Below, piece by piece: positions 6,592 to 30,443 of a DNA stretch of 64,000 nt. The stretch spans positions 2,734 to 66,733 of the forward strand of contig JBLNAX010000096.1 of the NCBI GenBank assembly GCA_050259595.1. The letters run 5' to 3'. A program made the translations under genes and the position numbers. Position 1 is the stretch's first letter, and the number at the start of each line of letters is the position of its first letter. The notes beneath the pieces are model-generated. The model made no database searches, had not been told where the DNA came from, and was given only the letters and a program-made list of their open reading frames with translations. The stretch is from Acidobacteriota bacterium. Lineage in GTDB: Bacteria; Bacillota; Syntrophomonadia; Syntrophomonadales; DTU052.

Positions 6592-6626
6592 GATGTAATG
6601 AGAAGTCAACAAATAAAGGTATAATT

Positions 6627-6652: not shown

Positions 6653-6654
6653 AT

Positions 6655-7185: not shown

Positions 7186-7332
7186 AGGAATTCCCCCTTA
7201 GTATTATTTACTCTATTTAATTTAGAAAGTAAATTGGTTTAGTTGATTTCCAAAATGAATTTGAGATATTTATTCTACACATGGAGTTAATCGATTATAA
7301 TAAACAACATAAACAACTTAATAACTTGGGAA

Positions 7333-7493
7333 ACCGGTACCCGTGCCTAAGTCAGGCCGGGTAAAAGGGAAAGCGGTGTGATTCCGCTGCAGTTTATCCC
7401 CTACTGTGATCGCGACCAAACCTGCGTTTGCCACTGGATTATTCCGGGAAGGTGCAGGGAGTAGGATGAGCGAAAGCCAGGAGACCTGCCGGT
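7333..7493 (+). ncRNA. Cobalamin riboswitch
   Basis: AAAAGGGAAAGCGGTGTGATTCCGC, CCCCTACTGTGA, GCCACTG...GGGAAGG and the B12 box AGCCAGGAGACCTGCC; lies upstream of the B12 uptake genes. Confidence 0.95.
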
Positions 7494-7562
7494 GATTCTT
7501 AAGTACTCTATCTTCCGGGATGAGAAGGGGGACTGTTATGGTGTCATACTATACCTGACAAG

Positions 7563-7590
7563 ACCGCGCCGGGAAGGGGCGGCTTTTTTA
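7563..7590 (+). terminator. Riboswitch attenuator terminator
   Basis: CCGCGCCGGGAAGGGGCGG followed by TTTTTT; upstream TCTTCCGG (about 7511) could act as antiterminator. Confidence 0.7.
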
Positions 7591-7631
7591 TTGGCATTTA
7601 CTGATCAAAAAGAGATAAGGATGGTTGATCG

Positions 7632-8882
7632 ATGTTAAGAGTCAAGAGTGGTTTATGGAAGCCGGGCATAGTTAGCCTGATATTATTGTTGATTATGGGG
7701 ATAATGGTTCCCCAGACTATAGCTGCAACGACGGCGGATGATGTCAATTATTCACTGCGTAAGGCGGTCGACTATTATTATGATTCTGGAAAAACCTTAG
7801 ATTGGATGTACGCCCTGGGTTTAGGTTCCGCGGGAGATGCCGGGGCTATGAGATATGATGTGGGTAGTCCAGACTTCTCAAAGTTGACTGATGCTGAAAA
7901 CAGATTGATGGGGCTAGTTGCGGCCCAAAGAGATGTGACAGCTGTTTCAGTTAATGGCGAGGTATACAACCTGGTGCAGATTATTGCCAGCAGCCAGAAG
8001 CCGGACGGACATTTCGGCGGGCCGGGCGCCACACTCAACAACACGTTATGGGCTGTGATCGCCCTCGATATGGCTGCTAATAATGGTGTATCAAGTGCAG
8101 TCTACAGTTATGATGCAGACAAGGCTCTTGATTACATATCAGGTAAACAGTGTGCAGATGGAGGGTTTGACGAGAGCGGGTGGGGCGAAGACGCGGACTC
8201 TACAGCTCATGTCCTGCTGGCTATAGCTCCGCACGTGACATCTGACAGCCAGATAATAACCAAAGCTCTAAATTATTTAAGCAGTAAGCAGCTTCCCTCC
8301 GGTGGTATCGATAACTGGGGCGAGAACCCCTCCAGCACTGCGGCAGTCATAGAAGCCCTTGTGGCTCTGGGCAAGGACCCACAGGGATCTGAATGGACTA
8401 AAGACGGGCATAACCTGGTCGGTAGTCTGCTTAGCTACCAGACTGCTACTGGTGGATTCATTCAGACTACTAACTGGGGACCGGTCGACCACACAGCTTT
8501 TGCTTTGTTGGCATTGACCGATCTGGCTAGCTGTAAGTCCAAATACCAGCATCAGTTCGTCATCACTCCTTGCGATATTCATCTGGCTGTCGATTCAACT
8601 GCCACTCTAGTGGCTGGATCCGATGCTGACTTGACGGTTAGAGTTGCCAATGTTTCAGGGAACAACAAGCCAGTACTCGTGATCGCTGTACTATATAATT
8701 CATCAGGTAAAATGGAGCGTTACTCTTATGCTAGCCATGAGATTGCCGCCGGAACAACTCAGGGCTTTGGCCTTGGGTTTGGGCTACCGGTTGGCACAGG
8801 CTATAAGGTTAAGGTTATGGTCTGGGATTCATGGCAAAATCGGCAGCCCCTGTGCAGTGCCGTAACCATTCCGGTCAATTAG
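7632..8882 (+). CDS. Secreted prenyltransferase/squalene-oxidase-repeat (alpha/alpha barrel) protein with C-terminal Ig-like domain
   Basis: Signal peptide; repeats SQKPDGHF, KQCADGGF, KQLPSGGI, YQTATGGF; DSTAHVLLA/STAAVIEAL; C-terminal KVMVWDSW..PL. Confidence 0.85.
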   Translation: MLRVKSGLWKPGIVSLILLLIMGIMVPQTIAATTADDVNYSLRKAVDYYYDSGKTLDWMYALGLGSAGDAGAMRYDVGSPDFSKLTDAENRLMGLVAAQRDVTAVSVNGEVYNLVQIIASSQKPDGHFGGPGATLNNTLWAVIALDMAANNGVSSAVYSYDADKALDYISGKQCADGGFDESGWGEDADSTAHVLLAIAPHVTSDSQIITKALNYLSSKQLPSGGIDNWGENPSSTAAVIEALVALGKDPQGSEWTKDGHNLVGSLLSYQTATGGFIQTTNWGPVDHTAFALLALTDLASCKSKYQHQFVITPCDIHLAVDSTATLVAGSDADLTVRVANVSGNNKPVLVIAVLYNSSGKMERYSYASHEIAAGTTQGFGLGFGLPVGTGYKVKVMVWDSWQNRQPLCSAVTIPVN

Positions 8883-8885
8883 GAG

Positions 8886-10262
8886 GTGCGGTCGATGAAA
8901 CCCAGATGGATAATAACTTGGATATTAGCACTGATACTGATCCTTCAGAGTGTCGCCAGTGTTGCTGCACTTAGCACCCTACAGGTAGAGAGCAAGCCTG
9001 GTAAACTGACTGTTTCTGGCCAGGCGAACGCTAACACTCAGGTCGCTCTGACGGTGACCGACCAGATATATGGTGGACGAAAATACCTGGGACAGGTCAA
9101 GGCTGATAACAATGGCAGCTTTTCTGTTGATGTGCCGTTAGAGATAGGCAGCTACCGTATTTTTGCCACTGGGTCCAGTATAAATCATGAAACAACAGCT
9201 TCAGTTAGTGTCACTGACAGTTCCTCTTTACCGTCGGGTGACGGGGGTGGTGGCAACAATCAACAGGCAATGACGTTATCCATTCAAGTGACCGGCGATA
9301 GCCAGCGTGGAGTAATGCTGGGGCGAACCGTGAAGACCTATCCGAAGGGGACTCTTAAAACGGCGCTGGATCTGCTGCGTGATACCTTGACAGCTGCCGG
9401 GATCAACTATGTTGTAGACGGAAATGGCTATGTAAAAGCAATCGGCGGGTTAAAGGAATTCGATCGGGGAGCCAACAGTGGTTGGCTATACTATGTGAAT
9501 AACACTTCACCTCCCGTGGGAGCAGATAATTGTACCGTTAATGATGGTGATTATGTTGAGTTCAGGTATGTCATTGACGGATTGGCAGGCGATCAATTCA
9601 ACATGGGGGGCGGTGGAATACCGGACCCGATAAAACAAGACACAAATAAACCTGCCCAACCGCTCACAACCTCTACAGAGAAAACAGTGAGCAGTCCGGC
9701 CAGCACGGGCGACTGGGCCAATCAGGCACTCAGTGAACTCATACGACGTGGAATCATAAAGAGTGATGCCAAGGATTTTCAACCCAAAAGGGCTATAACC
9801 CGGGCTGAGTTTGTCTCATTGCTTTATCGCGCTCAGGCCTTTAAAACCCCCGCCGATTCCGAACCATCATTCACTGATGTCAAACCAGGCAGTTGGTGCC
9901 ATGAGGCGGTTGAGGGTGCTGCTCAGGCTGGAATCATTGGAGGTTTCAGTGATGGAACTTTTAAACCGAACCAACCGTTGACCCGCTACCAGGCGGCGGC
10001 TATACTGCGCAATTTAGGCGATATAAAGGCTACCAGCAATAAGAAGCCATCTGATCATGGCCAGATACCGGAATGGGCGCAGCCCGGAGTAGTTTATGTT
10101 TTCAATACGGGTCTAATGGGAGGATATCCCGGAGGAGTGTTCCGTGGCGAAGGTAAGATAACCCGGGCGGAGGCGGCAGCCTTGCTGGTAAATTATTTGA
10201 ATGCTAAGATCCCAACTGCAACTCCGCAGGGCAGTAGCCAATCGTCGAGAGCTAGTAAGTAG
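8886..10262 (+). CDS. S-layer protein: N-terminal Ig-like domain, DUF4430 (transcobalamin beta-like) domain, three SLH domains
   Basis: YVKAIGGLKEFDRGANSGWLYYVN...VGADNCTVNDGDYVEFRY; SLH motifs ITRAEFV, FKPNQPLTRYQAA, ITRAEAA. Confidence 0.9.
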   Translation: MRSMKPRWIITWILALILILQSVASVAALSTLQVESKPGKLTVSGQANANTQVALTVTDQIYGGRKYLGQVKADNNGSFSVDVPLEIGSYRIFATGSSINHETTASVSVTDSSSLPSGDGGGGNNQQAMTLSIQVTGDSQRGVMLGRTVKTYPKGTLKTALDLLRDTLTAAGINYVVDGNGYVKAIGGLKEFDRGANSGWLYYVNNTSPPVGADNCTVNDGDYVEFRYVIDGLAGDQFNMGGGGIPDPIKQDTNKPAQPLTTSTEKTVSSPASTGDWANQALSELIRRGIIKSDAKDFQPKRAITRAEFVSLLYRAQAFKTPADSEPSFTDVKPGSWCHEAVEGAAQAGIIGGFSDGTFKPNQPLTRYQAAAILRNLGDIKATSNKKPSDHGQIPEWAQPGVVYVFNTGLMGGYPGGVFRGEGKITRAEAAALLVNYLNAKIPTATPQGSSQSSRASK

Positions 10263-10307
10263 AGTTAAACCATATCGTTAGTTTGCTTGGAGGTAGGATC
10301 GTAAAGT

Positions 10308-11171
10308 ATGGAACGATGGCAGTCTATGCCCCTTTTTACATATTGCATGGTATGGATGCTGATCATCCTGCTTTACCAGCATCCGTTATGCCTGACGATT
10401 ATGGGTATAGGACTGATGATAACAGTGAATGCTCTTGGTTTGATCAAAAATGCTGTTCGCAATATAGGCTATATCCTGCCTGTAATACTGATGCTGCTAG
10501 TGATCAATTCATTAATAAACAACAATGGACGCCAGGTCTTGATCGCAGTTCAATTGTTGGGTGCTCTTAGAGTAGTCTATTGGGAACCGTTGATATTCAG
10601 CCTGGCTATGAGCCTGAAATTGATCGATTTAATGCTTTTATTCGTATTGATAAATGAATTTCTGGAACCGTATCGCATTATCGAATTGAGTGGAGGCAAG
10701 CTGCATAAGCCGGTGCTGGTCATGGCCATGGCCCTACGCATTGTTCCATTTATGGGGGCGGAAATAAAACGGGTCCAGGAATCTTACCGTACACGAGGAT
10801 TTACATTTAGGGGAGGTCTTCTGCAACGTACTCGGGAATATGGGGTGTTGGCTAGAGCTGCCCTGATCCTGGCCTTGGAAAATGCGGCTGCCTGGGCGGA
10901 AGCCATGCAGGCGCGAGGTTACGGGGCTGGTCCCCGCAGTCACTATTTTCGCGGTGCTTGGAGTGCGGCCGATCATTATGTTATGGCTGCTAGTCTTATC
11001 GCCCTGACCATTGCCGTTATTGCTTTCGTTTTCAACTATGGAGCTGATCAATACTATTACGGAGTGGCTACTCAGCCAAGAGTCATCGAGGTAATTGCAG
11101 TAGTGGCCTTGACTGTTATAATATCGGGTCCGGGAATTCTCGCCGGGAGGTGGCGAAACTGGCAATATTAG
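10308..11171 (+). CDS. ecfT: ECF transporter T component
   Basis: Multiple TM helices; ALRIVP...RTRG and AEAMQARGY coupling-helix motifs. Confidence 0.9.
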   Translation: MERWQSMPLFTYCMVWMLIILLYQHPLCLTIMGIGLMITVNALGLIKNAVRNIGYILPVILMLLVINSLINNNGRQVLIAVQLLGALRVVYWEPLIFSLAMSLKLIDLMLLFVLINEFLEPYRIIELSGGKLHKPVLVMAMALRIVPFMGAEIKRVQESYRTRGFTFRGGLLQRTREYGVLARAALILALENAAAWAEAMQARGYGAGPRSHYFRGAWSAADHYVMAASLIALTIAVIAFVFNYGADQYYYGVATQPRVIEVIAVVALTVIISGPGILAGRWRNWQY

Positions 11172-12835
11172 AAGCAGACAGAATCAACTACCGCTACCCG
11201 CGGAGCCAAGAGATGGCTTTAAAGGGGATCAGTATGTCGGTCGAGCCCGGAGAAATGATGTTGGTGATCGGACAGTCTGGATCAGGCAAATCGACACTGG
11301 CCAAAGTTTTAGCCGGACTGGTACCTGATTTCTATGGTGGGTTGTTTTCTGGCCGAGTCTTGTACAAAGGACGTGAGCTGCGCGAATGGCATAAAATGCA
11401 GCGGACCCAGCAGATAGGTTTTGTCTTCCAAGATTCCGAACGGCAGCTGATATTTGATCAGGTAGAAAGAGAGATTGCCTTCGGGTTAGAAAATTTGGGT
11501 CTATCCCGCCCTGCCATGCATCTACGGGTGGCTGAAGTCTGCGATTATCTTGGCATACACAGCCTGCTCCGCCGGGCGGTACATGAGCTTTCTGGTGGAG
11601 AACGGCAAAAGGTGGCACTGGCCGGGGTCCTGGCCATGCACCCGGAACTTTTGATCCTGGATGAACCGGTCTCACAGCTTGATCCGATAGCAGCTGAGGA
11701 GTTTATTCAGATCGTCAAAAGGCTTAATGAAGAGCGTGGAATAACCGTTATAATCTGTGAACAAAGAACCGAGCGATTATTCCATATAGTCGATAAAACT
11801 GCAGTCATAAACGATGGCAGGATCACAGACACGGGAACGCCACATAGCGTAGCAATGAGGACGGCTAGAGACTACCTGTTGCCTACTGTTCCGCGCTTAT
11901 TCCGCCAGGCGGGCTGGAGTGCATCGCTGCCGCTGAGCATCCGGGAAGGGCGGCAATCGATCAGCCGTATGGCTGATCCAGCTTTGATACATATGGCCGA
12001 CACTGATGGAAATGATTCTGTTGGGCTAAGAGGTCCGAATGTGGTCAGCTTGAATAAGGTTTGGGTAGGTTATGAGTCCGGCCATGAAGTACTGAAGGAC
12101 GTGAGCTTTGACATTGCGGCGGGCGAAATCGTTGGTATTGCCGGTGGTAACGGGGCCGGAAAGTCAACCCTCCTGAAAACGATATCCGGTCTTGTCAGTA
12201 GTAAGCAAGGCCGGGTCGAAGTACTGGGACGGGCCGGACGCCAGCTCAAGCCAGAAAAATTAGCTGGTCAAATAGGTTACCTGCCGCAGAATCCCGCCGA
12301 CATGTTGTGGAGCGGCACCGTGCGTGAAGAGCTCACACAGACAGTAGCCAAACTGGGATGCCTGGACCAAGTCTTGATAGATCGAATCGTTGGTATTTTA
12401 AATCTGGAATCTCTGCTCGATGCTAACCCCCGGGAACTTAGCCAGGGTGAACAGGTGAGAGTAGCACTCGCTTCGATAGTATCAATAAAACCTCAGTTAC
12501 TGTTATTGGATGAGCCTACCCGAGGACTGGACAGCCTGAACCGGGAAGCTGTAGGGCAGTTGATCAAGGTCATGGCGTTGGCTGGATCAACGGTAATGAT
12601 CGTCTCCCATGATACCGAATTCCTGGCCGACTATGTTCAGCGTTTACTTATAATGTTTGATGGACAGATCGTGGCTGATGGAGCCAAGGAAGAAATCTTG
12701 CGGGAAAGTGTATTTTACTCCCCGCCAGCGGCGAGCATTTTCAGAGGAATAGATGATTCTATTCTCACCCAGGAACAGGCTCGTAAACAACTGGAACAGT
12801 ATTTGGCGAACAACCGAGAGGACTGTGCAACTTAA
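11150..12835 (+). CDS. ECF transporter duplicated ATPase
   Basis: Two ABC domains: GQSGSGKST/LSGGERQ/LILDEP and GGNGAGKST/LSQGEQ/LLLDEP. Confidence 0.95.
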   Translation: MAKLAILEADRINYRYPRSQEMALKGISMSVEPGEMMLVIGQSGSGKSTLAKVLAGLVPDFYGGLFSGRVLYKGRELREWHKMQRTQQIGFVFQDSERQLIFDQVEREIAFGLENLGLSRPAMHLRVAEVCDYLGIHSLLRRAVHELSGGERQKVALAGVLAMHPELLILDEPVSQLDPIAAEEFIQIVKRLNEERGITVIICEQRTERLFHIVDKTAVINDGRITDTGTPHSVAMRTARDYLLPTVPRLFRQAGWSASLPLSIREGRQSISRMADPALIHMADTDGNDSVGLRGPNVVSLNKVWVGYESGHEVLKDVSFDIAAGEIVGIAGGNGAGKSTLLKTISGLVSSKQGRVEVLGRAGRQLKPEKLAGQIGYLPQNPADMLWSGTVREELTQTVAKLGCLDQVLIDRIVGILNLESLLDANPRELSQGEQVRVALASIVSIKPQLLLLDEPTRGLDSLNREAVGQLIKVMALAGSTVMIVSHDTEFLADYVQRLLIMFDGQIVADGAKEEILRESVFYSPPAASIFRGIDDSILTQEQARKQLEQYLANNREDCAT

Positions 12836-13521
12836 TGGAATCAGTATTAGACTTGATCAGCCTGTTGAAAAACCTGAATTGGGGCCTGACCAGCTTTGTT
12901 TTACTGGTGTTAGCCTTGTGGTTTTTCTTGTGGAGAGCAGACCGATCATCGATGGGGGTTCGTGACATTACCCTGGTTGCTACTCTATCAGCGGTTGCTG
13001 CTCTAGGACGCGTTCCCTTCGCTGCTCTGCCCGGTATACAGCCTACGACCTTTATGGTCACTGTTGCTGGTTTGGTATTCGGCGGGCGAGCCGGATTTTT
13101 AGTAGGTTGCCTGGGGGCGCTGGTATCCAACTTCTTTTTGGGTCAAGGGCCATGGACTCTTTGGCAGATGGCAGCCTGGGGGTTGATCGGCGTTTGTGCG
13201 GGATGGTGGGGCAAATATGATTTTGCTTCAACGCGCTGGGGATTGGCTCTGTACGGCATTGTTTGGGCTTTTCTTTTTGGCTGGATAATGAATGTCCAAT
13301 ATTGGATCACCTTCACCTATCCATTGACAATTTCGGGGTATTTGACCGCATGTGCAACCAGTGTGTGGTTCGACTTCCTTCATGCAGCCAGTAACGCTGT
13401 ACTAGGATTCATTATCGGGCCGGAGATAGTTAAGCTGCTGCGGGAATATCGTTTGGTTTTTGAAGCCGTTCCGGTTGAACAGGCTTCTACTGATAGTTCA
13501 GATATAGCGGAGGATTGCTGA
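12835..13521 (+). CDS. cbrT: ECF S component, CbrT-like (cobalamin)
   Basis: GRVPFAALPGIQPTTF and SNFFLGQGPWTLWQM motifs; B12 riboswitch context. Confidence 0.8.
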   Translation: MESVLDLISLLKNLNWGLTSFVLLVLALWFFLWRADRSSMGVRDITLVATLSAVAALGRVPFAALPGIQPTTFMVTVAGLVFGGRAGFLVGCLGALVSNFFLGQGPWTLWQMAAWGLIGVCAGWWGKYDFASTRWGLALYGIVWAFLFGWIMNVQYWITFTYPLTISGYLTACATSVWFDFLHAASNAVLGFIIGPEIVKLLREYRLVFEAVPVEQASTDSSDIAEDC

Positions 13522-19520: not shown

Positions 19521-19547
19521 TCAAATATGGCTAATTATGAAAAACAG

Positions 19548-19580
19548 GATGGATTGAGGGTGAGTGAGCCCTCAATCCAT
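19548..19580. terminator. Inverted repeat between convergent genes
   Basis: ATGGATTGAGGG...CCCTCAATCCAT. Confidence 0.65.
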
Positions 19581-19620
19581 AAAAACATGGAGTTATATAT
19601 GGGCGATTTACCTGAGTTGA

Positions 19621-20376
19621 TTAGAACCCAACTTTAAGGTTCCAGGGCATAACGATCTTATATGTCGGTGTGATTTGATATATCTGAGGGATCGTGGGAC
19701 TGGTTTTGGTTATGCTGCTGGCGTATTTGTAAGAAGTACTTGGCAGTACTCGCCGTACATCGTTCAACTGCTGGCCATACCACCAGGAGAAATTGTCTAC
19801 GATACCGATAGCAGTTGGATGACCGCTCATGGTATTGATTACACAGGTCTTTCCGTTTACTTGTCCCACATAGATGCCAACATGGCTGATATGGCGCCCC
19901 AGAGCGGCAGTTGTTGTCCACCAGGTGAAGATGTCACCAGGTTGGAGTTTTTCCACGCCGACCAATTTATAGCGGCTGGTGCCGGGAATGAGTTGGGAAT
20001 ATACTCCCTCAACAACTGTGCCCACTTGATTGTACTTGGCTGATATAGTTGTAAGCGGGTATCCGTAATCACCATAGACTCTAGATACAAACTGTGAACA
20101 GTCTATGTATCCTGTGGTTGAGTATGCCGTATGTCCATATTTAATAAAGCCGAATTCCATGTACCAAATGGCTCGTCCGACCAGGGACTGAGCGGGATTC
20201 TGTTGATAAGAGGCGCGCAGGGCATAAATTATCGGCACCTCATGGTTCTTATAGTGTTCCTGTTCGGGGGTTAGAGGGGTCGTGGTGACTGTTGCAGCGA
20301 ATCCCATAGACGTCGCAAACAAAACAACAGTCAGTACGATCGCTAGTGCAATCGCTAATCTTGACGTTATCCGCAT
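19621..20376 (-). CDS. Secreted NlpC/P60 (C40) peptidase
   Basis: Signal peptide; IDCSQFV, LQPGDIF, HISHVGIYVG. Confidence 0.9.
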   Translation of the reverse strand: MRITSRLAIALAIVLTVVLFATSMGFAATVTTTPLTPEQEHYKNHEVPIIYALRASYQQNPAQSLVGRAIWYMEFGFIKYGHTAYSTTGYIDCSQFVSRVYGDYGYPLTTISAKYNQVGTVVEGVYSQLIPGTSRYKLVGVEKLQPGDIFTWWTTTAALGRHISHVGIYVGQVNGKTCVINTMSGHPTAIGIVDNFSWWYGQQLNDVRRVLPSTSYKYASSITKTSPTIPQIYQITPTYKIVMPWNLKVGF

Positions 20377-20502
20377 TATTGATCCTCCTACTGCAAATTA
20401 ATGTTCGAACATAGCTACCCGGATAACTAATTTCGTCTCACCATAAACATCGGGCGTGACGGAGGTGAACTCGATGGTAAGTGGAGGGAAGAGAGGAAAA
20501 AG

Positions 20503-20526
20503 AAAAAGGAGGCTATAAACCTCCTT
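20503..20526 (-). terminator. Terminator of the YtkA/FixG-like operon
   Basis: AAGGAGG-TTTATAG-CCTCCTT followed by TTT on the minus strand. Confidence 0.6.
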
Positions 20527-20551
20527 AATCAGTAACCATATAGTCAAAATG

Positions 20552-21907
20552 TTACATACGCATTCCCATTCTAACAGTAAATGTTAGGAAGTTGATTACA
20601 CCAAAAAAGAGTATGACTAAAATATAAGGTATAGCTACGGACCATGCCCGGTGTTCACCGTAATTGTTTTTAGCGATCCTATTGGCAGTGTAAATCGAGC
20701 CGAGAGTTCCGATAATAACTAAGACGTACTGCATGATTTGAATCGTCGGGTCGGGGACTAGGCCGAGCGGCCCTTCCATATGCATTCCGAACAAACCCGT
20801 AAAAGTATAATAGATGGCTTTCCCTTCGGCTAATAGGTGGAACAGATTATGGGCTATATGGGCAGATAGATCAAGTGGAATTACTGCATAGCCAAAGCGG
20901 GCAAAGGCATTTTTTAATGTTTCGCCGGTTACGTGTTTGGAAAAAGCAGTAGCAGCAAAAAGCAGTAAAACCGGCGTAGCCATAGCTAAGATAAACAGGA
21001 TTGTAAAAGCCACATTTACGTTACTAATTCCTAAAAACTGTTCTACCCACTTGAGAAACGCTGGGTAAAAGTCCAGCATGGTAATGTTTTGTACAAAAAC
21101 AATTCCCACAATAACAATTGCCAAGAAAGACTCCTCAAACCGCGCTCTAGTCATTGACCAGAATTCACTCGTGGGAATGCGTGGTGTTATCCTGATAGAA
21201 TCGTGGGGGCAAGTCTTTATGCAGTTGGCACACAGGTTACAGCTTGCGTTGTTTTCCATTGCCATAGGTAATTCGAACATCGGGCACCCCGGAGCATTGC
21301 TGTTACCTCTATAACAATCCCTAGTTTTGCACTGAGTTCTGCAGATATCCTTGTCAGCCCTTAACTCCAGCATTCCTGCTCGTGAATAGTTGCCGGACAG
21401 ACTGCCAAGAAAACATAAATAGCGGCACCAGGTACGGCGTTCAAAGAACATAGCTGTTATCATAACACCGGCGAAAAGTAACAATAATACGGTTCCGGTG
21501 CCCCTAGGAGACTCTACGATGCCCCAAATATGATCGGACCAGGTGATGAGAATAAAAGTAAAATCAATTATCCAAAGCCCATACTTCTTGATGAAATGCG
21601 GAACCTTCAGATCTGCTCCAAAGAGTTTTTGGGTTAGATCGCTGAGCCAGGCGAAGGGGCATATGGCACACCAGAACCTGCCGAACAAAAAGAAGAAAAG
21701 CGGTATCAACGGCCACCAGAGGACCCAAGTGGCTGCTGTGCCGAAGTTGTCTTCTGGAGTGATCGGTCCTGCTATAGCCTCAAACATCACAACGGCAAAG
21801 ACAAGAACAGCGCCCCACTGAAATATGCTAGGGTACAGGCGGCTTTTGAGAAAGTGTCTTAAAACTGGATATCTTAGAAGATTTATCGGCTGTTTATTCG
21901 AAGACAT
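20552..21907 (-). CDS. Membrane 4Fe-4S polyferredoxin (FixG/NapH/NosR-C-like)
   Basis: GRFWCAICP, RTWCRYLC and CNLCANCIKTCP motifs, many TM helices, HIAHNLFH; start at MSSNK after GGAGGG. Confidence 0.85.
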   Translation of the reverse strand: MSSNKQPINLLRYPVLRHFLKSRLYPSIFQWGAVLVFAVVMFEAIAGPITPEDNFGTAATWVLWWPLIPLFFFLFGRFWCAICPFAWLSDLTQKLFGADLKVPHFIKKYGLWIIDFTFILITWSDHIWGIVESPRGTGTVLLLLFAGVMITAMFFERRTWCRYLCFLGSLSGNYSRAGMLELRADKDICRTQCKTRDCYRGNSNAPGCPMFELPMAMENNASCNLCANCIKTCPHDSIRITPRIPTSEFWSMTRARFEESFLAIVIVGIVFVQNITMLDFYPAFLKWVEQFLGISNVNVAFTILFILAMATPVLLLFAATAFSKHVTGETLKNAFARFGYAVIPLDLSAHIAHNLFHLLAEGKAIYYTFTGLFGMHMEGPLGLVPDPTIQIMQYVLVIIGTLGSIYTANRIAKNNYGEHRAWSVAIPYILVILFFGVINFLTFTVRMGMRM

Positions 21908-22469
21908 GTGATGTCCCTCCACTTTCGTGCGGTTTTCTTTTCTTGAGCATTGATGCTAGTATACCGGCGAGAAAAATCATCCCAGCAATAACACCGATAA
22001 AAATATAGTTTGGTCCCGAGCTGTCAACACTGATCGGAAATGTGATCTTTCCTGGGCCAAGACGAGAAGTAATATTAAATGTTTGATTCCATTGCCCCGG
22101 GTCACTGAGAGTGATGGAAGCAGTGTATTGGCCTCGATAGCTCTTATTTGAATGCATAATTACCTGTTCCGGTTTATCCATGCTGAGAGACATTTGATCA
22201 CCACTCATGTTGGCGTCGTTGTCCATCATGGTTGATTTCATCTGAACTTTGGCACCGGTAACTGGTTTCCCAGTGAGCTTGTCAGTAAGAATCACGGAGA
22301 TAGTTGTAGGTTTGTTGGACATGAGCATCTCTGGTTGGGTCGTCAATACTATGTGATAGGGACCGGCTGTTTTTGCGTTTTCTTCTGCAGCTAATGCAAA
22401 AGCGCTGGTTGCCAGTAATGATGTGATTAGCATTATAGCAAGGATAATTTTCTTTCTAAAATGATTCAT
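21894..22469 (-). CDS. YtkA/FixH-like Met-rich surface protein with C-terminal TM anchor
   Basis: Signal peptide; GKPVTGAKV, Met-rich segment, GQYTASITLSDPGQW; GGAGGAG RBS before ATG at 22469. Confidence 0.75.
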   Translation of the reverse strand: MNHFRKKIILAIMLITSLLATSAFALAAEENAKTAGPYHIVLTTQPEMLMSNKPTTISVILTDKLTGKPVTGAKVQMKSTMMDNDANMSGDQMSLSMDKPEQVIMHSNKSYRGQYTASITLSDPGQWNQTFNITSRLGPGKITFPISVDSSGPNYIFIGVIAGMIFLAGILASMLKKRKPHESGGTSHVFE

Positions 22470-22508
22470 ACAACAAACTCCTCCATTCGTATTTGTTGTA
22501 TTTATACT

Positions 22509-22524
22509 TGCAACGGTCATGCCA
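22509..22524 (-). promoter_or_regulatory. Sigma54 (-24/-12) promoter
   Basis: TGGCATGACCGTTGCA on the minus strand: GG-N10-GC, near consensus, 40 nt upstream of the start codon. Confidence 0.8.
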
Positions 22525-22795
22525 GTATGAAGGGCAGAACGAAGTCTTCTAAGACCTAAGCCTTATGGCACGGGAGTATGGCAAATGGTGGTGGCAGTCA
22601 TTTGAAGAGATGACCTTGAATCAATGCTTGTATTTCATCATATAAGTCTGCGAAAAGCTACATAGTTGCGGCTTTTCATACAATAGAAGCGGTTACACTG
22701 ATAGCACTAAGATATATGGTTGCTTTGATGATTCGAATGGAGTACCCCTGGTATGAGGCAAAAGGCTATAATAGAGAATATTAGTTTTATTAAGG

Positions 22796-24709
22796 ATGCA
22801 TCCTATGAATCTCTTGACCATGGAAAACATATGTAAATCGCATGGTGCTAAGAATCTCTTGCGGGAGATCAGCTTCAGTATCGATGAGGGCGAAAAGATT
22901 GGTCTGTTAGGCAAGAATGGCTCGGGCAAGTCTACTTTTTTAAAACTTGTGGCGGGCGCCGAAGAACCTGATCAGGGCTTTATTGTTACGGCCAAATCAC
23001 TGCGCATCGAGTATCTGGCGCAAAACGCCCTGTACGATCCAGAGGCCACGATCATGCAGACTGTGTTAAGTGGAGATTCACCTGCTATGCAGGTTTGGCG
23101 GCAGTATCATGCTATGATCCTAGATATGGACAATGCCGAGGCAGATGCAGCAAATCGAGAATTATCACATTTGAGCCAACAGATGGAGAACCTGGACGCC
23201 TGGACTCTTGAGAGCGAGGCTCACTCTATTCTGACGCGATTAGGCATTGCGCAGTACAGCGAGCCGATGGGCATGCTCTCCGGCGGTCAGCGTAAAAGAG
23301 TTGCCCTGGCAGCGGCGCTCATGAATCCGGCGGATCTGCTGATTCTTGATGAACCGACCAACCATTTGGACAATCAGGCTATAGATTGGCTGGAAAAATA
23401 CTTGCAAAAGTTCAACGGTGCATTGCTGATGGTTACTCACGATCGATATTTTTTAGAGCGTGTAACCAACCGTATTGTTGAGATCGATAGTGGTCAGATG
23501 TATAACTATCCTGGCAATTACAGTGTTTTTATCGAACGCAAGCTGGAGCGGGAAGACCGCGAAGCAGCTACCGCGGATAAACGGCAGGCTTTACTGCGTA
23601 AGGAATTAGAATGGATGCGCAAAGGTGCCCGAGCCCGCACTACCAAGCAGAAAGCGCGAATTGACCGTTTTGAGAAGCTGCAGGCTGAGCAGCCGCGCAC
23701 AGCAGGCGGGACAGTGGACATTGCATCTACCGCCAGCCGCTTAGGCAAAAAGACGATCATTCTGCATGACATATCTCACGGTTATGACGGAGTGCAGCTT
23801 GTCAAAGACTATTCCTGTATATTGGATAGGGAAGAGCGTATGGGTATAGTCGGCCCCAACGGTGTGGGTAAATCAACAATATTGCGTATCATGAGCGGAG
23901 ATATAACACCTGATGAGGGTTATATCGAACTCGGCAGTACCGTTAAAATCGGGTATTTTCCTCAGGAGAGTACAGGCCTCCCGCTGGAAATGCGAGTCAT
24001 TGATTATATTCGCGACGCAGCTGAATACGTACAAGCCGGCAAGAAAAATCTCAGTGCCTCACAAATGCTGGAGACATTTCTGTTTACACCGGCTTCCCAA
24101 TGGACGGCCTTGGAGAAGCTTTCCGGAGGGGAGATCAGGCGTCTGCACCTACTGCGTATCCTTATGGAAGCCCCCAATATCCTGCTCCTGGATGAGCCGG
24201 GGAATGATTTGGATATCGAGACTCTGAACATCCTGGAGGACTATTTGGATGACTTCAAAGGTGCGGTAGTGGCGGTGTCGCACGACCGTTATTTCCTGGA
24301 TCGAGTATCAGAAACGATATTAGCCTTTGAGGGCGATGGCCGACTGACCGAATATCCCGGTAATTACTCTGATTACCTATTCTATTCCGCAGAAAAGCCT
24401 GACCCTCGGCAGGATTCAGCTCCGGCTAATGAGAAAAAAGCTTACCGTGATTCCGAAAAACCAAAGCAGGTCAAGTTCACTTTCAAGGAACAAAAAGAGT
24501 TTGAGGAAATCGATGATAAAATCGCGGCTGTGGAAACCGAATTAAAGGACCTGAATGCCCTAATAGAAGCGGCGGCCAGTAATTACATGCTCTTGGAAGA
24601 GCTTCTGGCTAGACGCCCGGAAATAGAGCAGCAGTTGGATGTACTGCTGGAGCGCTGGACTTATTTAACTGAACTGGCTGAGGAGATAGACAGGCAGAAA
24701 GGCCGGTAA
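22796..24709 (+). CDS. ABC-F family ATPase (Uup/YfmR-like)
   Basis: Two ABC domains without TM helices; LDEPTNHLD, KGARARTTKQKARI linker, C-terminal KFTFKEQKEF coiled coil. Confidence 0.92.
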   Translation: MHPMNLLTMENICKSHGAKNLLREISFSIDEGEKIGLLGKNGSGKSTFLKLVAGAEEPDQGFIVTAKSLRIEYLAQNALYDPEATIMQTVLSGDSPAMQVWRQYHAMILDMDNAEADAANRELSHLSQQMENLDAWTLESEAHSILTRLGIAQYSEPMGMLSGGQRKRVALAAALMNPADLLILDEPTNHLDNQAIDWLEKYLQKFNGALLMVTHDRYFLERVTNRIVEIDSGQMYNYPGNYSVFIERKLEREDREAATADKRQALLRKELEWMRKGARARTTKQKARIDRFEKLQAEQPRTAGGTVDIASTASRLGKKTIILHDISHGYDGVQLVKDYSCILDREERMGIVGPNGVGKSTILRIMSGDITPDEGYIELGSTVKIGYFPQESTGLPLEMRVIDYIRDAAEYVQAGKKNLSASQMLETFLFTPASQWTALEKLSGGEIRRLHLLRILMEAPNILLLDEPGNDLDIETLNILEDYLDDFKGAVVAVSHDRYFLDRVSETILAFEGDGRLTEYPGNYSDYLFYSAEKPDPRQDSAPANEKKAYRDSEKPKQVKFTFKEQKEFEEIDDKIAAVETELKDLNALIEAAASNYMLLEELLARRPEIEQQLDVLLERWTYLTELAEEIDRQKGR

Positions 24710-25919: not shown

Positions 25920-26762
25920 ATGGCACAGTCAATCAAAAAGCAGGACAGCGTAAGCAGTATAATAATGTTTATCTTTAACGTATTTCTAGTAGAGCGGGGA
26001 ATAAACAGTATCCCGCTGAAGAAGATACTGCACCTCGTGCAACCGTTCAATAAAAATGAAACCGCTGTCAGAATGGGGCTCTCGCGAGCCGTTCAGAACG
26101 GAATACTGCGCAATGTAAGGAAAGATAACGAGGTTCACTATGAATTGACTGAATCCGGCGTTGAGGCGGTAGAGGAATGGCGCCGGGTATTGGCCGAATT
26201 TCGCCACAATATAGATGCTCAGGTGGCAGGTTGGAGTGGATTTTGGAACACGGTCTTCATTAGTGACAGTACCTTCAATAATTCAGACACGCTGGCGCTG
26301 GTGCTGGATATATTGGCTGAGCACAAATACGGTATGCTCAGTAAGAACTTGTGGATATGCCCATATGGACGCTCCTCTGCGTTTGCCAAAGTGCTAAATA
26401 TGAAGAAGACAGAGTCATTAGGGGTCCAGATATTCGAATCGCGACCGCTTCAGAATAATAGGGTTCTGGCCAACATGGTCTGGGGAACTGAGAAATTGGC
26501 TGCCAGATATTCTGAGTTTTTTACTGAATTAAATAAAGAAGTTCAGGCCCTAAAGCAGGAAAAAACGGCAGAAGGAATACTGCCTTTTCTGCACCGGTTT
26601 GGGATTCAGTTGTTCGAAATCATAAAAGATGATCCCCAATTGCCGATGGAAGTCCTACCCGAGGGCTGGCTAGGCCTCGAAGCCGCCAGGACCTTCAATG
26701 GAATACGAGAGGATCTGCTGCCGGCGGCAAGTGAGTATATAGATCAGGTGTTAGCTGAGTAG
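25920..26762 (+). CDS. PaaX-family transcriptional regulator
   Basis: ETAVRMGLSR winged helix, YELTESG, WSGFW, DDPQLPMEVLPEGWLG. Confidence 0.88.
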   Translation: MAQSIKKQDSVSSIIMFIFNVFLVERGINSIPLKKILHLVQPFNKNETAVRMGLSRAVQNGILRNVRKDNEVHYELTESGVEAVEEWRRVLAEFRHNIDAQVAGWSGFWNTVFISDSTFNNSDTLALVLDILAEHKYGMLSKNLWICPYGRSSAFAKVLNMKKTESLGVQIFESRPLQNNRVLANMVWGTEKLAARYSEFFTELNKEVQALKQEKTAEGILPFLHRFGIQLFEIIKDDPQLPMEVLPEGWLGLEAARTFNGIREDLLPAASEYIDQVLAE

Positions 26763-26772
26763 AAAAAAGAAC

Positions 26773-26798
26773 AAACCCTCCGATCACGCGGAGGGTTT
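26773..26798. terminator. Bidirectional terminator
   Basis: AAACCCTCCG-ATCACG-CGGAGGGTTT. Confidence 0.7.
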
Positions 26799-26807
26799 AT
26801 GATAGGC

Positions 26808-27197
26808 TTATGCGGTTATTTGTTTGTCTTCCTTCAGAATGTGTTGGCTTATCCAGTTGACCAGGAATTCCAGCAGGTCCGAGATGTATTTATCCTGGTT
26901 TTCATCGATTGTCCTATAATCGGTCTCTTCGATTTTCTTTATGAAGTCATCGTGAATGACTTTGTGCCCCAAAAACCTCATGTATTTGACACTCTGCATG
27001 AACTCTTCTTCTGTCTTGAAATGGTAGATAGTGTACTCTTTGAGCTCGTCCAGAACCGTGGCAATTTGATCAAACTTGTCTGTGATAAGGTCATTCTTGA
27101 GTAGTTCGAAAGCTCGATTGGCAATTTCAAACAGCTTTTTGTGCTGTTCATCGATTTGCTCAACGCCAGTGCTATATTTATCATCCCACTTGATCAT
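26808..27197 (-). CDS. Bacteriohemerythrin
   Basis: IDEQHKKL, HFKTEEEFM, HKVIH, HILKED iron ligands. Confidence 0.95.
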   Translation of the reverse strand: MIKWDDKYSTGVEQIDEQHKKLFEIANRAFELLKNDLITDKFDQIATVLDELKEYTIYHFKTEEEFMQSVKYMRFLGHKVIHDDFIKKIEETDYRTIDENQDKYISDLLEFLVNWISQHILKEDKQITA

Positions 27198-27229
27198 CAA
27201 GAAGCCCCCTCTCAAATATTTGAAGTGTA

Positions 27230-27256: not shown

Positions 27257-27392
27257 AACAAAAAGACTCGATTACGTGCGAAGTAAACGGGAATGGGGTA
27301 TAGGTAGAATGTTCTAGAATTGGCTTCCTGGCCTTTGTTAGATATAATATCATTGTCTATGTGTATGGAATCAAGCAACAAGGAGAAGGCCA

Positions 27393-28310
27393 ATGAATGC
27401 GAAAGATAACATGTCCTGGCAGGATGAAGTACAGCGCGTGGCAAAGGGCATCAGACGCCGGGTTTTGGAACATACCATCAACAGCAATGGCGGCTATCTT
27501 AGTCAGGCTTGTTCGGCTGCGGAAATCGTTGCAGCCATGTATCTGAAAATCATGAATCTGGGCCCTTCGGTGGCGCCACTGATTCCGCTGCGTTTTGGCG
27601 GTGTGCCAGGACCCAATAATAGTGAAAGCTTTACCGGAGCCGGATATAATGGACCACAGGCACCAGACCTGGACCGGTTTATTTTGTCTCCCTCACAATA
27701 TGCTCTGGTCATCTACGCGGCACTAGTGGAGCTGGGGCGCATGGCCCTGGAGGGACTTGCTCAGTTTAATCAAGATGGCAGTACTGTTGAGATGATAGGT
27801 GCTGAACACTCGCCGGGTATGGAGGTAATGACAGGTTCGCTGGGGCAGGGCTTGAGTCAGGCCGCTGGTATGGCCATGGCCCGCAGACTCCGCGGTGATA
27901 CTGGTCGTATATGGCTTTTCATGTCCGATGGAGAATTTCAGATCGGGCAGACCTGGGAGGCTATCCAATCCATGGTCTATCATAAGCTAGACAATATAGG
28001 CATTTATGTTGATGTTAACGGACAACAATGTGATGGCACGGTGACCAGTGTAATGAATATCGAGCCTCTGGACCAGCGGTTGGAGGCTTTCGGGGCCAGA
28101 GTATTCAAAGTTGACGGCCATGATATAGAAGCACTAGCTGCTCCGGCTGGGCTAGAACCCAATGGCCAGCCTCTGGTAGTGCTGGCTTACACCAACTCTT
28201 GTCAGGGTATAGAATTGCTTAGTTCGCGGGCACCTAAACTGCACTACTTGCGATTTGATAACGATGCTGAGCGGCAGAAATACTCGACATTCCTGGCCAA
28301 CTTTGAATAG
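27393..28310 (+). CDS. Transketolase-like ThDP enzyme, N-terminal subunit (atypical active site)
   Basis: DRFILS, TGSLGQGLS, ThDP motif SDGEFQIGQTWEA...DVN, VDGHD. Confidence 0.92.
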   Translation: MNAKDNMSWQDEVQRVAKGIRRRVLEHTINSNGGYLSQACSAAEIVAAMYLKIMNLGPSVAPLIPLRFGGVPGPNNSESFTGAGYNGPQAPDLDRFILSPSQYALVIYAALVELGRMALEGLAQFNQDGSTVEMIGAEHSPGMEVMTGSLGQGLSQAAGMAMARRLRGDTGRIWLFMSDGEFQIGQTWEAIQSMVYHKLDNIGIYVDVNGQQCDGTVTSVMNIEPLDQRLEAFGARVFKVDGHDIEALAAPAGLEPNGQPLVVLAYTNSCQGIELLSSRAPKLHYLRFDNDAERQKYSTFLANFE

Positions 28311-28325
28311 ATAAGGAGAACACTT

Positions 28326-29333
28326 ATGGAGATCAAGACCAAAGTCCACCATAAGAACTTGGTCGAATGGGCCAAAGATAAGCCAGAAGTCGTGGTGTTG
28401 TCAGCCGACCTGACCAGTTCCACGGAAATAGACCTGTTTCGAGATACATATCCAGACCGCTTCTTTTCTATGGGCATTGCTGAGCAGAATATGCTGAGTT
28501 TTGCGGGGGGGATAGCCCGCGAAGGCTATTTCCCATTCGTGCATACCTTTGCGGTATTTATCTATCGACGCGCTTATGATCAGATAGCAGTATCGGTGGC
28601 CTATCCGAATCTGCCAGTACGCATGTTTGGCTTTTTACCGGGAATTATGACCCCGGGCGGGGCTACCCACCAGGCAATTGAGGACATCAGTATCATGCGC
28701 TCCCTGCCTAATATGACAGTGCTGGAGTGCGGAGATGCTACCGATGTGGAGAGCGTGCTCGACGTGGCTCAGTCTGTGAATGGGCCAGTTTACATCCGTA
28801 TGCTGCGGGGCGAGATCCCACGATTGTTCGATAAGTCGGAACCTATGATGTTAGGTAAGACCAGAACTCTCAGTGAAGGAACCGATATTGCAGTGTTTTC
28901 CAGTGGTATATGCACTGAAGAAGCCATGCGGGCGATTAAGGCTTTACAGGCTCACGGAGTATCTATTCAGCATTTACATGTTTCTACTTTGAAACCGTTC
29001 GATAATCCGGAAGTTCTCGATGCAATAGCTGGAGCTAAATACGGGGTTGTCACATTCGAAAATCATTCGGTAATTGGGGGCCTGGGAACCATTGTAGCTG
29101 AAAAAATAGCAGAGGCCGGTCTGGGCAAAAAACTGGTTCGTATCGGAATCAAAGACACATTCCTGCATGGAGCCAGCCGCAAGTATCTTGCTCGTGAATA
29201 TGAGATCGATGCCCTAGCACTGATCGGAAGGATAGGGCAGATGGTGCGTAGCCAGTTCAACATTACCGAAAATGAATTGGCTGATATCCACATTACCGCA
29301 GTCCACAGCCAGGCCAAAGCGGAGGCGCTGTAG
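28326..29333 (+). CDS. Transketolase-like enzyme, C-terminal subunit
   Basis: LSADL, MGIAEQNM, YDQI, GGATHQAIED, GPVYIR, ENHSVIGGLG. Confidence 0.92.
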   Translation: MEIKTKVHHKNLVEWAKDKPEVVVLSADLTSSTEIDLFRDTYPDRFFSMGIAEQNMLSFAGGIAREGYFPFVHTFAVFIYRRAYDQIAVSVAYPNLPVRMFGFLPGIMTPGGATHQAIEDISIMRSLPNMTVLECGDATDVESVLDVAQSVNGPVYIRMLRGEIPRLFDKSEPMMLGKTRTLSEGTDIAVFSSGICTEEAMRAIKALQAHGVSIQHLHVSTLKPFDNPEVLDAIAGAKYGVVTFENHSVIGGLGTIVAEKIAEAGLGKKLVRIGIKDTFLHGASRKYLAREYEIDALALIGRIGQMVRSQFNITENELADIHITAVHSQAKAEAL

Positions 29334-30443
29334 ATGGAAAGATTTACGATCGTTTACCGGCTGGCAGGAACCGAAGCTGAAGCTTACAGCCGGGCTCATG
29401 ATATATGCCTGGAGCAGACTGTGGAATTTCCGGGCGAGCTCATTCCGCCCGGTTTTATTCGCGATAATGTTTTAGGTCAAATCGAAGAATTCGTGCCCAA
29501 TGGCACGGAGAGTTATCAGGCGACCATCAGCTTCGCCATTGATATAGACGCAGGTGAACTGACTCAACTATTGAATGTCATGTTTGGCAATATCAGCTTA
29601 AAACCCGGTTATCGGGTGGAAGAGATATGTCTTGCGGAATCAATGCTGAAAATGTTTAAAGGTCCGAGATTTGGGCGCGCCGGGTTGCGCAGTTTGTTAA
29701 ATGTGCCCCAACGCCCCCTGCTGGCTACCGCACTTAAACCGATGGGACTAAGCAGCAGAGAGCTGGCTGATCTGGCCTACAAGTTCGCTCTGGGTGGCAT
29801 CGATATCATCAAAGACGATCATGGCCTGACAGACCAAAACTATGCTCCTTTTAAGGAGCGGGTCCGTCTGTGCGCGGAAGCTGTATATAAGGCAAATCGC
29901 GAAACAGGACAAAAATGCATTTATGTCGCAAATATAACCGCTCCATATGGTGAAATCATGACTCGAGCTCAGTATGCCAGGGATCATGGAACTGGTGGAC
30001 TTATGCTGGCTCCTGGTTTAGTTGGTTTTGATACTATGAGGACTCTAGCCGATGATGATGCCATCGCTCTGCCGGTGATATGCCACCCGGCACTCTTGGG
30101 CAGTTATGTGTTGAGCCCTGACTTTGGGATATCTCGTTATGCCTTGTTTGGACAGATAGTGCGTCTGGCCGGTGCTGATAGCACCATTTATCCTAATTTT
30201 GGCGGGCGCTTTTCGTTCAGTCGTGACGAGTGCAATCGCATCGTGGACGGGACAAAGGCGCCGATGAGCGAAGTTAAGCCGATTTTCCCGTGCCCCGGAG
30301 GCGGCATGAGTGTCAGTAGTGTACCGGAAATGCGAATGGTTTATGGTGAAGATGTAATCTTTCTGATCGGCGGTAACTTGTTCAAGCAGGGGCCGGACAT
30401 CGTTGAGAACTGCCGCCATTTTCGCAGTTTGGTGGATAGATAA
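29334..30443 (+). CDS. RuBisCO-like protein (form IV, KDDH / deep-YkrW-like)
   Basis: CLEQTVE, FGNIS, GPRFG, ALKPMGLS, GGIDIIKDDHGL, HPA, PCPGGGM, LIGG; ATG directly follows the upstream TAG. Confidence 0.93.
   Translation: MERFTIVYRLAGTEAEAYSRAHDICLEQTVEFPGELIPPGFIRDNVLGQIEEFVPNGTESYQATISFAIDIDAGELTQLLNVMFGNISLKPGYRVEEICLAESMLKMFKGPRFGRAGLRSLLNVPQRPLLATALKPMGLSSRELADLAYKFALGGIDIIKDDHGLTDQNYAPFKERVRLCAEAVYKANRETGQKCIYVANITAPYGEIMTRAQYARDHGTGGLMLAPGLVGFDTMRTLADDDAIALPVICHPALLGSYVLSPDFGISRYALFGQIVRLAGADSTIYPNFGGRFSFSRDECNRIVDGTKAPMSEVKPIFPCPGGGMSVSSVPEMRMVYGEDVIFLIGGNLFKQGPDIVENCRHFRSLVDR

Follow-up and report, generated by a model that had tools for sequence, protein, structure and literature searches.

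Operon organisation and identity of the RuBisCO-like protein

The window, a stretch of 64,000 nucleotides from contig JBLNAX010000096.1 of the Acidobacteriota bacterium assembly GCA_050259595.1 (Syntrophomonadales in the GTDB lineage), carries on its plus strand, at positions 27393-30443, one tight operon of three open reading frames (ORFs). In order, these encode TK-N and TK-C, the two subunits of a variant split transketolase-like enzyme, and a RuBisCO-like protein (RLP). Pfam assigned Transketolase_N to TK-N, Transket_pyr and Transketolase_C to TK-C, and RuBisCO_large to the third protein. Shine-Dalgarno-like sequences precede all three starts, and the TAG stop of TK-C abuts the ATG of the RLP gene at 29331-29336, bearing out the three-gene operon with abutting stop and start that had been put forward in a preliminary description of this DNA. 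Our preferred reading, to which we give a probability of about 0.55, is that the transketolase-like enzyme, dependent on thiamine diphosphate (ThDP), cleaves the product of the RLP, 1-methylthio- or 1-deoxy-xylulose-5-phosphate, to glyceraldehyde-3-phosphate and a C2 unit, probably releasing methanethiol.

The RLP matches RuBisCO_large with 114.6 bits and, at 369 residues against 378 in the structure 3qfw, has the fold with a short N-terminal domain. Its best relative in the Protein Data Bank (PDB) was 3qfw itself, an RLP of Rhodopseudomonas palustris (E 1.8e-70, 241 bits, full length), to which the AlphaFold2 model (mean confidence, pLDDT, 86) aligned with TM-scores of 0.89-0.93. MtnW-type enolases scored at most 157 bits (4nas 157, 2oek 141), the Photo-type RLPs 1ykw and 2qyg 125-131 bits, and 3nwr 78 bits. 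Both NCBIfam MtnW models stayed below their cut-offs (209 versus 409 and 161 versus 514 bits), and the apiose OiaX model reached 79.3 bits against a cut-off of 700. The protein carries the motif KDDHG; 3qfw has KDDH at the aligned place, where the MtnW protein 4nas has KDDE, and from these alignments we infer that KDDH, replacing the KDDE of RuBisCO, defines the clade. Judged in this way, the RLP is of the DeepYkr type, grouping with the Rhodospirillum rubrum and R. palustris isomerases and not with apiose or sugar-acid RLPs, a placement that agrees with the isomerase role given to it in the preliminary description. According to passages of PMC5893883, R. palustris has two RLPs, the DeepYkr one being a 5-methylthioribulose-1-phosphate (MTRu-1P) 1,3-isomerase. 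As one of the two is already accounted for by the structure 2qyg, whose title is rlp2, we take 3qfw to be R. palustris RLP1. The RLP of the window probably catalyses the same kind of reaction, the isomerisation of MTRu-1P to 1-methylthio-xylulose/ribulose-5-phosphate.

Remodelled active site of the transketolase-like enzyme

The two transketolase-like subunits were aligned with the solved split transketolase 6yak/6yaj and human transketolase using HMMER, and with the canonical split transketolase and the 1-deoxy-xylulose-5-phosphate synthase (DXS) of the same genome using MAFFT. TK-N matched Transketolase_N with 70 bits and had 6yak as its best fold match; TK-C matched Transket_pyr (114 bits) and Transketolase_C (66 bits), with 6yaj as its best PDB match (E 6e-62). 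The NCBIfam transketolase equivalog gave 161.2 bits (TK-N) and 213 bits against a cut-off of 488, and the DXS model TIGR00204 gave 20 bits for TK-N and 172.6 bits for TK-C against a cut-off of 466, the enzyme moreover not being a single chain.

In translation, TK-N reads GYLS, SPSQ, EMIG and SDGE, and TK-C reads IAEQ and FLPG..PGGATHQ; by both alignment routes the variant motifs fall exactly opposite canonical GHPG, SKGH, GHP, GDGE, THAG and GEDGxSHQ. Within TK-N, His26 is replaced by Tyr35, His66 by Gln101 and the His100 loop by EMIG. In TK-C, Leu (FLPG) takes the place of His461, and Pro/Gly-Gly that of Glu-Asp469. Further, the canonical GDG reads SDG, and Ile or Ser is found where the EG motif has its Glu. 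Other residues are kept: the ThDP/Mg motif of TK-N (SDGE...DVNG), with Asp179 and Asn209 invariant; His284 of TK-N, also invariant; the equivalents of His261 (KLHY, TK-N) and His473 (ATHQ, TK-C); the cofactor-activating catalytic Glu of TK-C (IAEQN); and, from the residues for substrate phosphate and stereochemistry, the Arg520 and Ser385 equivalents, so that part of the phosphate site is retained. TK-N further contains a Pro/Gly-rich insertion of 27 columns relative to canonical split transketolases (residues ~56-86, pLDDT 73-81), and TK-C is extended at its C-terminus by a conserved stretch of about 20 residues. The motifs quoted in the preliminary description, KDDHG and the ThDP motif among them, are thus all present in the translations, and its claim that the equivalents of His26, His66, His100, His461 and Asp469 are lost holds in the HMMER and the MAFFT alignments alike, including the comparison with the DXS of the genome; its estimate of about 20 residues for the insertion was too low.

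Substitutions, insertion and extension are at least 95% conserved among 45 split and eight fused TK-N relatives, and among 47 split and eight fused TK-C relatives, from many phyla, which marks purifying selection on a changed active site and not decay or chance. The fused forms, with TK-N and TK-C in one protein, were found in eight Nitrospirota-type loci and confirm that TK-N and TK-C together form a single enzyme. In some loci of this type (L021, positions 7472-7927; L024; L053; L057) a protein of about 150 residues of the CMD/AhpD family is encoded between the fused transketolase (~670 residues) and the RLP.

We take His26, His66 and His100 to be the contacts of transketolase to the C1 hydroxyl of the donor (and to the diphosphate), and Asp469 is presumably the residue that fixes acceptor stereochemistry. 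The genome of the window has a separate canonical split transketolase and also encodes a 632-residue protein that aligns as DXS, with both N-terminal GH motifs and the DGxTH motif kept. On its contig C100 (locus L085, positions 2250-4033) there is, in addition, a second atypical split transketolase, in which the N-terminal histidines are kept and the His461/Asp469 equivalents are missing. Its neighbours (L085, positions 83-9044) include three radical S-adenosylmethionine (SAM)/SPASM genes, three methyltransferases, an SDR-family gene and an NDP-sugar epimerase/dehydratase, a neighbourhood suggesting that this enzyme may make a branched or modified sugar.

Alternative partners of the RLP across genomes

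A collection of species-representative genomes (185,579 species genomes) held at least 592 relatives of the RLP and at least 543 of TK-N, and the best 80 loci for each seed, most of them from metagenome-assembled genomes (MAGs), were examined for gene neighbourhood. Among the RLP-seeded loci, the variant transketolase lay immediately upstream of the RLP (gap of at most 1 kb) in 53 of 80 and 3.8 kb away in one more. A 145-residue cupin stood in its place in nine, 12 had neither despite adequate flanks, five had too little upstream sequence, and none of the 80 held both. Starting from TK-N, an adjacent RLP was found in 61 of 80 loci, a further six being too short to judge. The preliminary description had proposed to check whether the transketolase variant always neighbours RLPs with KDDH and excludes the cupin; the linkage is tight (61/80 TK-N-seeded and 54/80 RLP-seeded loci), and the exclusion is nearly complete, one genome having both. 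Within the 80 nearest RLP loci the transketolase is by far the commoner partner (54 versus 9).

This cupin is homologous to Rru_A2000 (3jzv, E 1.4e-41), which passages of PMC4958253 describe as the 1-methylthio-xylulose-5-phosphate (MTXu-5P) sulfurylase acting after the RLP Rru_A1998. Five cupin loci also carry an O-acetylhomoserine sulfhydrylase (540 bits, cut-off 495) and a CoA-binding protein. At the level of whole genomes, the variant transketolase was present in 0/9 cupin genomes, where the best match (39% identical) was a canonical transketolase, and the cupin in 1/29 transketolase genomes. Eight of 11 genomes with an orphan RLP hold the variant transketolase elsewhere (65-70% identity). 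No cupin orthologue was found in the window's own genome, which is 98.7% complete: the best profile match there had 41.8 bits, whereas, of the nine cupins in related loci, eight reached 254-278 bits with the same profile and one, that of L078, 149 bits.

The RLPs themselves do not divide according to partner. The closest relatives of the window's RLP (68-73% identity, from Syntrophomonadaceae MAGs) are transketolase-linked and cupin-linked alike; those with a cupin, at L006-L010, are 68-72% identical to it. In a tree of 119 RLPs, the root of which and the direction of cupin/transketolase swaps were not resolved as the outgroups L163 and L164, homologues of RLP or RuBisCO, are too distant (end branches of 10), cupin-linked sequences were nested among transketolase-linked ones, and the window's RLP fell in a ten-member group (SH-aLRT 91) of five cupin-linked, four transketolase-linked and one unlinked protein. 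No alignment column separated 91 transketolase-linked from nine cupin-linked RLPs, and the candidate catalytic positions K135, K160, D161, D162, H163, H251, P252 and R292 were identical in 100 of 100. Taken together, the linked loci, the RLP tree, the invariant columns and the whole-genome profiles show a pattern of non-orthologous displacement, in which one and the same RLP is partnered by either the transketolase or the cupin.

The linkage of variant transketolase and RLP spans at least ten phylum-level labels, one of them a Promethearchaeota MAG. Of the 185,579 species genomes, at least 540 have the variant transketolase itself, and they range from Bacillota, Nitrospirota and Chloroflexota to that MAG. 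Cultured carriers are Sporotomaculum syntrophicum, Desulfosporosinus sp. Tol-M, Chloroflexus sp. MS-G and Thiorhodococcus drewsii. The MAG labelled Promethearchaeota (Asgard archaea) has the full trio of TK-N, TK-C and RLP (L123, positions 5001-8056; 54-67% identity), which suggests inter-domain transfer or a binning artefact. A Nitrospirota MAG (L023, positions 4209-6215) has, 1.8-3.8 kb upstream of its RLP gene, a divergent variant transketolase (48-51% identity) that seems to be split into several ORFs and may be a decaying copy. In two Anaerolineae MAGs (L149, positions 3677-6921, and L151, positions 3329-6572) a radical SAM CofH/MqnC-like gene points away from the transketolase pair in divergent orientation; no RLP lies near the pair, and none was found in either genome with this query. 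Apart from TK-N, TK-C and RLP, no conserved third partner was present in more than about 10 of 80 loci; the families that did recur were the cupin with its companions in the cupin loci (O-acetylhomoserine sulfhydrylase and CoA-binding protein) and, in scattered places, ABC, AhpD-like and aldolase genes.

Links to the metabolism of 5'-methylthioadenosine (MTA) were observed in the window's own genome and in related ones. On contig C28 of the former (positions 19543-23320; L004, positions 7535-11320), mtnP, mtnA, a class II aldolase and an amidohydrolase of the MTA/5'-deoxyadenosine-deaminase type follow in a row directly after ftsY, by gene content a complete cluster of the dihydroxyacetone phosphate (DHAP) shunt type. 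The genome also encodes an O-acetylhomoserine sulfhydrylase. Of the three genes named for a check in the preliminary description, mtnP and mtnA are thus present, and mtnK was not found in this genome. MtnA exceeded its cut-off in 27 of 29 transketolase genomes. A particularly rich locus (L018, positions 206-13110) has thirteen genes on one strand: a sugar ABC transporter, MtnK (431 bits), MtnA (452 bits), DeoR, TK-N, TK-C and RLP, followed by an LsrF-like aldolase/thiolase, an Rpe-like epimerase, a mutarotase, a Zn-dependent alcohol dehydrogenase and a class II aldolase. The LsrF-type protein matched the 3-hydroxy-5-phosphonooxypentane-2,4-dione thiolase model with 493 bits, above its cut-off, and the Rpe-like gene is of note because the characterised RLP yields a 3:1 mixture of xylulose and ribulose epimers (passages of PMC6302742 and PMC4958253). 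Behind the RLP of L016 come a SAM riboswitch, MetX, a Cys/Met pyridoxal-phosphate enzyme and CysK, this being the only SAM riboswitch found among the related loci.

The surroundings of the operon in the window are listed in Table 1. The preliminary description had found no cupin, kinase, transporter or regulator, which is correct for the operon itself; a PaaX-family regulator gene is nevertheless nearby, set apart from it. An MBL-fold protein gene lies further upstream and an LCM-type methyltransferase downstream on the minus strand. None of these flanking genes (PaaX, bacteriohemerythrin, MBL-fold, methyltransferase) recurs beside the RLP in 80 related loci, marking the operon as a self-contained three-gene unit. 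Sigma-70-like sites in the operon region numbered eight against 4.3 expected. A plus-strand ORF of 101 codons at 26799-27104 was rejected as an operon member; it overlaps the minus-strand bacteriohemerythrin gene and is probably spurious. An Rfam scan found no riboswitch upstream of the operon, nor upstream of TK-N in eight related loci; its sole matches in the window were a cobalamin riboswitch at 7318-7507 (plus strand, 95 bits) and a molybdenum/tungsten cofactor riboswitch at 53586-53702 (plus strand, 65 bits).

Table 1. Features of the operon and of the region directly upstream (positions in the window)
Feature	Position	Strand	Description
PaaX-family regulator gene	25920-26762		Split from the operon by the bacteriohemerythrin gene and the terminator-like hairpin
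Terminator-like hairpin	26771-26800		Beside the bacteriohemerythrin gene
Bacteriohemerythrin gene	26808-27215	-	135 aa, 115 bits, own ribosome-binding site; gene directly upstream of the operon
Sigma-70-like promoter candidate	27320-27348	+	TTGGCT-17-TATAAT, 10/12 matches, consensus match only; ~45 bp upstream of TK-N
TK-N	27393-28310	+	305 aa; ThDP-binding (PP) subunit of the variant split transketolase-like enzyme
TK-C	28326-29333	+	335 aa; pyrimidine-binding plus C-terminal subunit
RLP	29334-30443	+	369 aa; DeepYkr-type RuBisCO-like protein, probable 5-methylthioribulose-1-phosphate 1,3-isomerase

Proposed pathway, alternatives and known systems

SAM chemistry inevitably yields MTA and 5'-deoxyadenosine as by-products, for which two anaerobic routes are so far known to us, the isoprenoid shunt of RLP and cupin and the DHAP shunt of the aldolase. 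In the pathway that we propose, MtnP and MtnA, encoded elsewhere in the genome, would supply MTRu-1P and possibly also 5-deoxyribulose-1-phosphate. The DeepYkr RLP would then, by homology to characterised enzymes, form 1-methylthio-xylulose/ribulose-5-phosphate. Gene context and the active-site changes point to the second step, in which a TK-N/TK-C heterotetramer would add ThDP at C2, break the C2-C3 bond and free glyceraldehyde-3-phosphate; a thioether or methyl group at C1 would suit the Tyr, Gln and aliphatic residues that stand in place of the histidines binding the C1 hydroxyl. After C2-C3 cleavage the fragment is at the aldehyde level, and an acetyl unit arises only if methanethiol is eliminated.

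For the fate of this fragment we prefer, on chemical grounds, that the ThDP-bound 1-hydroxy-2-(methylthio)ethylidene expels methanethiol to leave acetyl-ThDP, which would give acetate or acetyl-phosphate. Phosphoketolase and sulfoacetaldehyde acetyltransferase (Xsc) are ThDP enzymes that eliminate a beta-leaving group, water or sulfite, to form acetyl-ThDP, and by analogy an enamine with a beta-methylthio group should readily expel methanethiol, which would explain how the transketolase can stand in for a methanethiol-releasing cupin. Alternatively, the fragment might be protonated and leave as (methylthio)acetaldehyde, or be passed to an acceptor, and the 1-deoxy analogue from 5'-deoxyadenosine may be a substrate too. 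The route would require no thiol reductant and would send carbon to glycolysis instead of 1-deoxy-xylulose-5-phosphate (DXP). Carried further, the same analogy tentatively suggests that the variant transketolase might be a C-C lyase that depends on ThDP and releases methanethiol, a kind of 'phosphoketolase' for methylthio-pentulose that converts MTXu-5P to glyceraldehyde-3-phosphate, methanethiol and acetyl-phosphate or acetate, and might repeatedly have displaced the cupin route; we see this as a possibility with the odds against it.

Several observations weigh against cleavage of the RLP product by the transketolase. The RLP is only about 34% identical to 3qfw in the Foldseek alignment, and with so modest an identity its isofunctionality is inferred via the cupin-linked relatives, the assignment resting mainly on gene context. 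Thirteen of the 80 TK-N-seeded loci lack an RLP within 5 kb, and in three of five checked genomes of such loci none was found genome-wide; these pairs may act on a substrate that does not need the RLP, or the MAGs may be incomplete. Three of 11 orphan-RLP genomes have neither the variant transketolase nor the cupin. One genome, G017, that of locus L047, has both the transketolase and a cupin of the Rru_A2000 type (C8, positions 97408-97839; 58% identity), so both second enzymes may coexist there. Binding of the 5-phosphate is not assured, since the equivalent of the phosphate-binding His461 is lost and that of Arg358 aligns to a two-residue gap. Upstream of the window's operon there is no SAM riboswitch or other sulfur-linked signal. 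Finally, the genome already has the aldolase route of the DHAP shunt for the same substrate, and the module would in part duplicate it; two routes likewise operate side by side in R. rubrum and R. palustris, according to passages of PMC5893883.

A rather unlikely alternative is that the operon disposes of a radical SAM by-product and does not salvage sulfur: the RLP would make DXP from the 5'-deoxyadenosine branch, and the transketolase, acting as a reverse DXS, would yield glyceraldehyde-3-phosphate and hydroxyethyl-ThDP, to be released as acetaldehyde or acetoin. The loss of the histidines that bind the C1 hydroxyl suits a hydrogen at C1 as well as S-methyl, and this alternative also draws on the amidohydrolase of the 5'-deoxyadenosine/MTA deaminase type that ends the mtnP-mtnA-aldolase cluster of the genome, on the radical SAM gene divergent from the RLP-less transketolase pairs of L149 and L151, and on the MtnK/MtnA/aldolase/alcohol dehydrogenase set of L018, which we take to be of the kind described for 5-deoxyribose disposal. 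The cupin-linked sister loci with their O-acetylhomoserine sulfhydrylase, and L016 beside Met genes controlled by a SAM riboswitch, point instead to sulfur salvage. Breaking down DXP, a useful isoprenoid precursor, seems wasteful, and the deoxy and methylthio substrates are not mutually exclusive.

It is quite unlikely that the C2 unit is transferred and not released, the enzyme being a ketol transferase with an unusual donor or acceptor that builds or rearranges methylthio- or deoxy-ketose phosphates, or acting before the RLP and making its substrate. Fold, ThDP site and catalytic Glu are those of transferases, the gene order places the transketolase first, and the Rpe-like epimerase and LsrF-like aldolase/thiolase of L018 could process further sugar phosphates; the same RLP type, however, partners a cupin that acts after the RLP, the Asp469 equivalent is lost, and no dedicated acceptor-supplying enzyme is evident, no such neighbour family occurring in more than about 10 of 80 loci. 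An ordinary pentose-phosphate transketolase was rejected on account of the lost residues and the canonical paralogue, and the wider notion of an ordinary or degenerate, inactive transketolase placed by chance beside an RLP of unrelated function is highly improbable: Pfam and NCBIfam do name both subunits only as transketolase, but the scores are far under the equivalog cut-offs, the replacements at five canonical residues, the insertion and the extension are conserved across phyla, the ThDP ligands and catalytic Glu are retained, and the RLP linkage recurs across at least ten phylum-level labels. An RLP/transketolase pair of the apiose type was likewise rejected, the OiaX score being too low.

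The interpretation of the preliminary description, that the variant transketolase cleaves the RLP product, is thus supported at the level of sequence, and the module is apparently an undescribed form of MTA salvage by the DeepYkr-RLP branch, in which another enzyme takes the second step. In open-access full text, no paper was found that connects a transketolase with an RLP or with MTXu-5P, a result that older literature may correct. Judged from listings and passages, papers containing both terms concern only the Calvin cycle or 7-deoxysedoheptulose, and the word 'transketolase' is absent from PMC6302742, PMC5893883 and PMC13454268. If the proposed cleavage occurs, it would be a third fate for methylthioribulose-1-phosphate and a new reaction type in the transketolase family, and hundreds of genes that now go under 'RuBisCO large subunit' and 'transketolase' would gain a function; with such labels, carbon fixation and the pentose-phosphate pathway can be wrongly called in metagenomes. 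With methanethiol release it would constitute a redox-neutral, oxygen-independent and possibly ATP-yielding branch of methionine salvage. The proposal is readily testable, as the substrates are obtainable enzymatically from MTA and cultured carriers exist.

Among known systems, the MTA-isoprenoid shunt (R. rubrum Rru_A1998 and Rru_A2000; R. palustris RPA2169 and RPA2170) shares with the module the RLP type, KDDH and the presence of MtnP and MtnA in the genome, and sister loci whose RLPs are 68-72% identical carry the Rru_A2000-type cupin and O-acetylhomoserine sulfhydrylase. The window's operon and genome differ from it in having no cupin orthologue and, in its place, the variant split transketolase; the expected products here would be glyceraldehyde-3-phosphate and a C2 unit, not DXP, with no thiol co-substrate. 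The DHAP shunt (MtnP/MtnK, MtnA and the class II aldolase Ald2/DrdA, for MTA and 5'-deoxyadenosine) would draw on the same substrate pool and likewise form a triose phosphate and a C2 sulfur compound; it is co-encoded with the transketolase-RLP module in the window's genome (C28) and in the same operon in L018. Its aldolase, however, acts directly on the 1-phosphate ketose, and neither an RLP nor a ThDP enzyme takes part.

The split transketolase of Carboxydothermus hydrogenoformans (6yak/6yaj), and EC 2.2.1.1 enzymes in general, agree with the variant in two-subunit architecture, fold, PP, Pyr and C-terminal domains, ThDP/Mg motif, catalytic Glu and the equivalents of His261, His473, Arg520 and Ser385, and differ in the replaced residues (His26, His66, His100, His461, Asp469), the 27-residue insertion of TK-N and the extension of about 20 residues of TK-C. 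Phosphoketolase and Xsc resemble the proposed enzyme only in chemistry, with methanethiol as the putative leaving group; they have no specific sequence relation to TK-N and TK-C beyond the ThDP superfamily, and no phosphoketolase or Xsc family model matched either subunit in the Pfam and NCBIfam scans. The D-apiose and apionate pathways, reportedly described by Carter et al. in 2018 with RLPs (OiaX/OiaT) and the apulose-4-phosphate transketolase AptA/AptB, likewise bring an RLP and a split transketolase together in sugar catabolism; compared via the RLP, the system of the window is set apart by an RLP of a different clade (OiaX model, 79.3 versus 700 bits).

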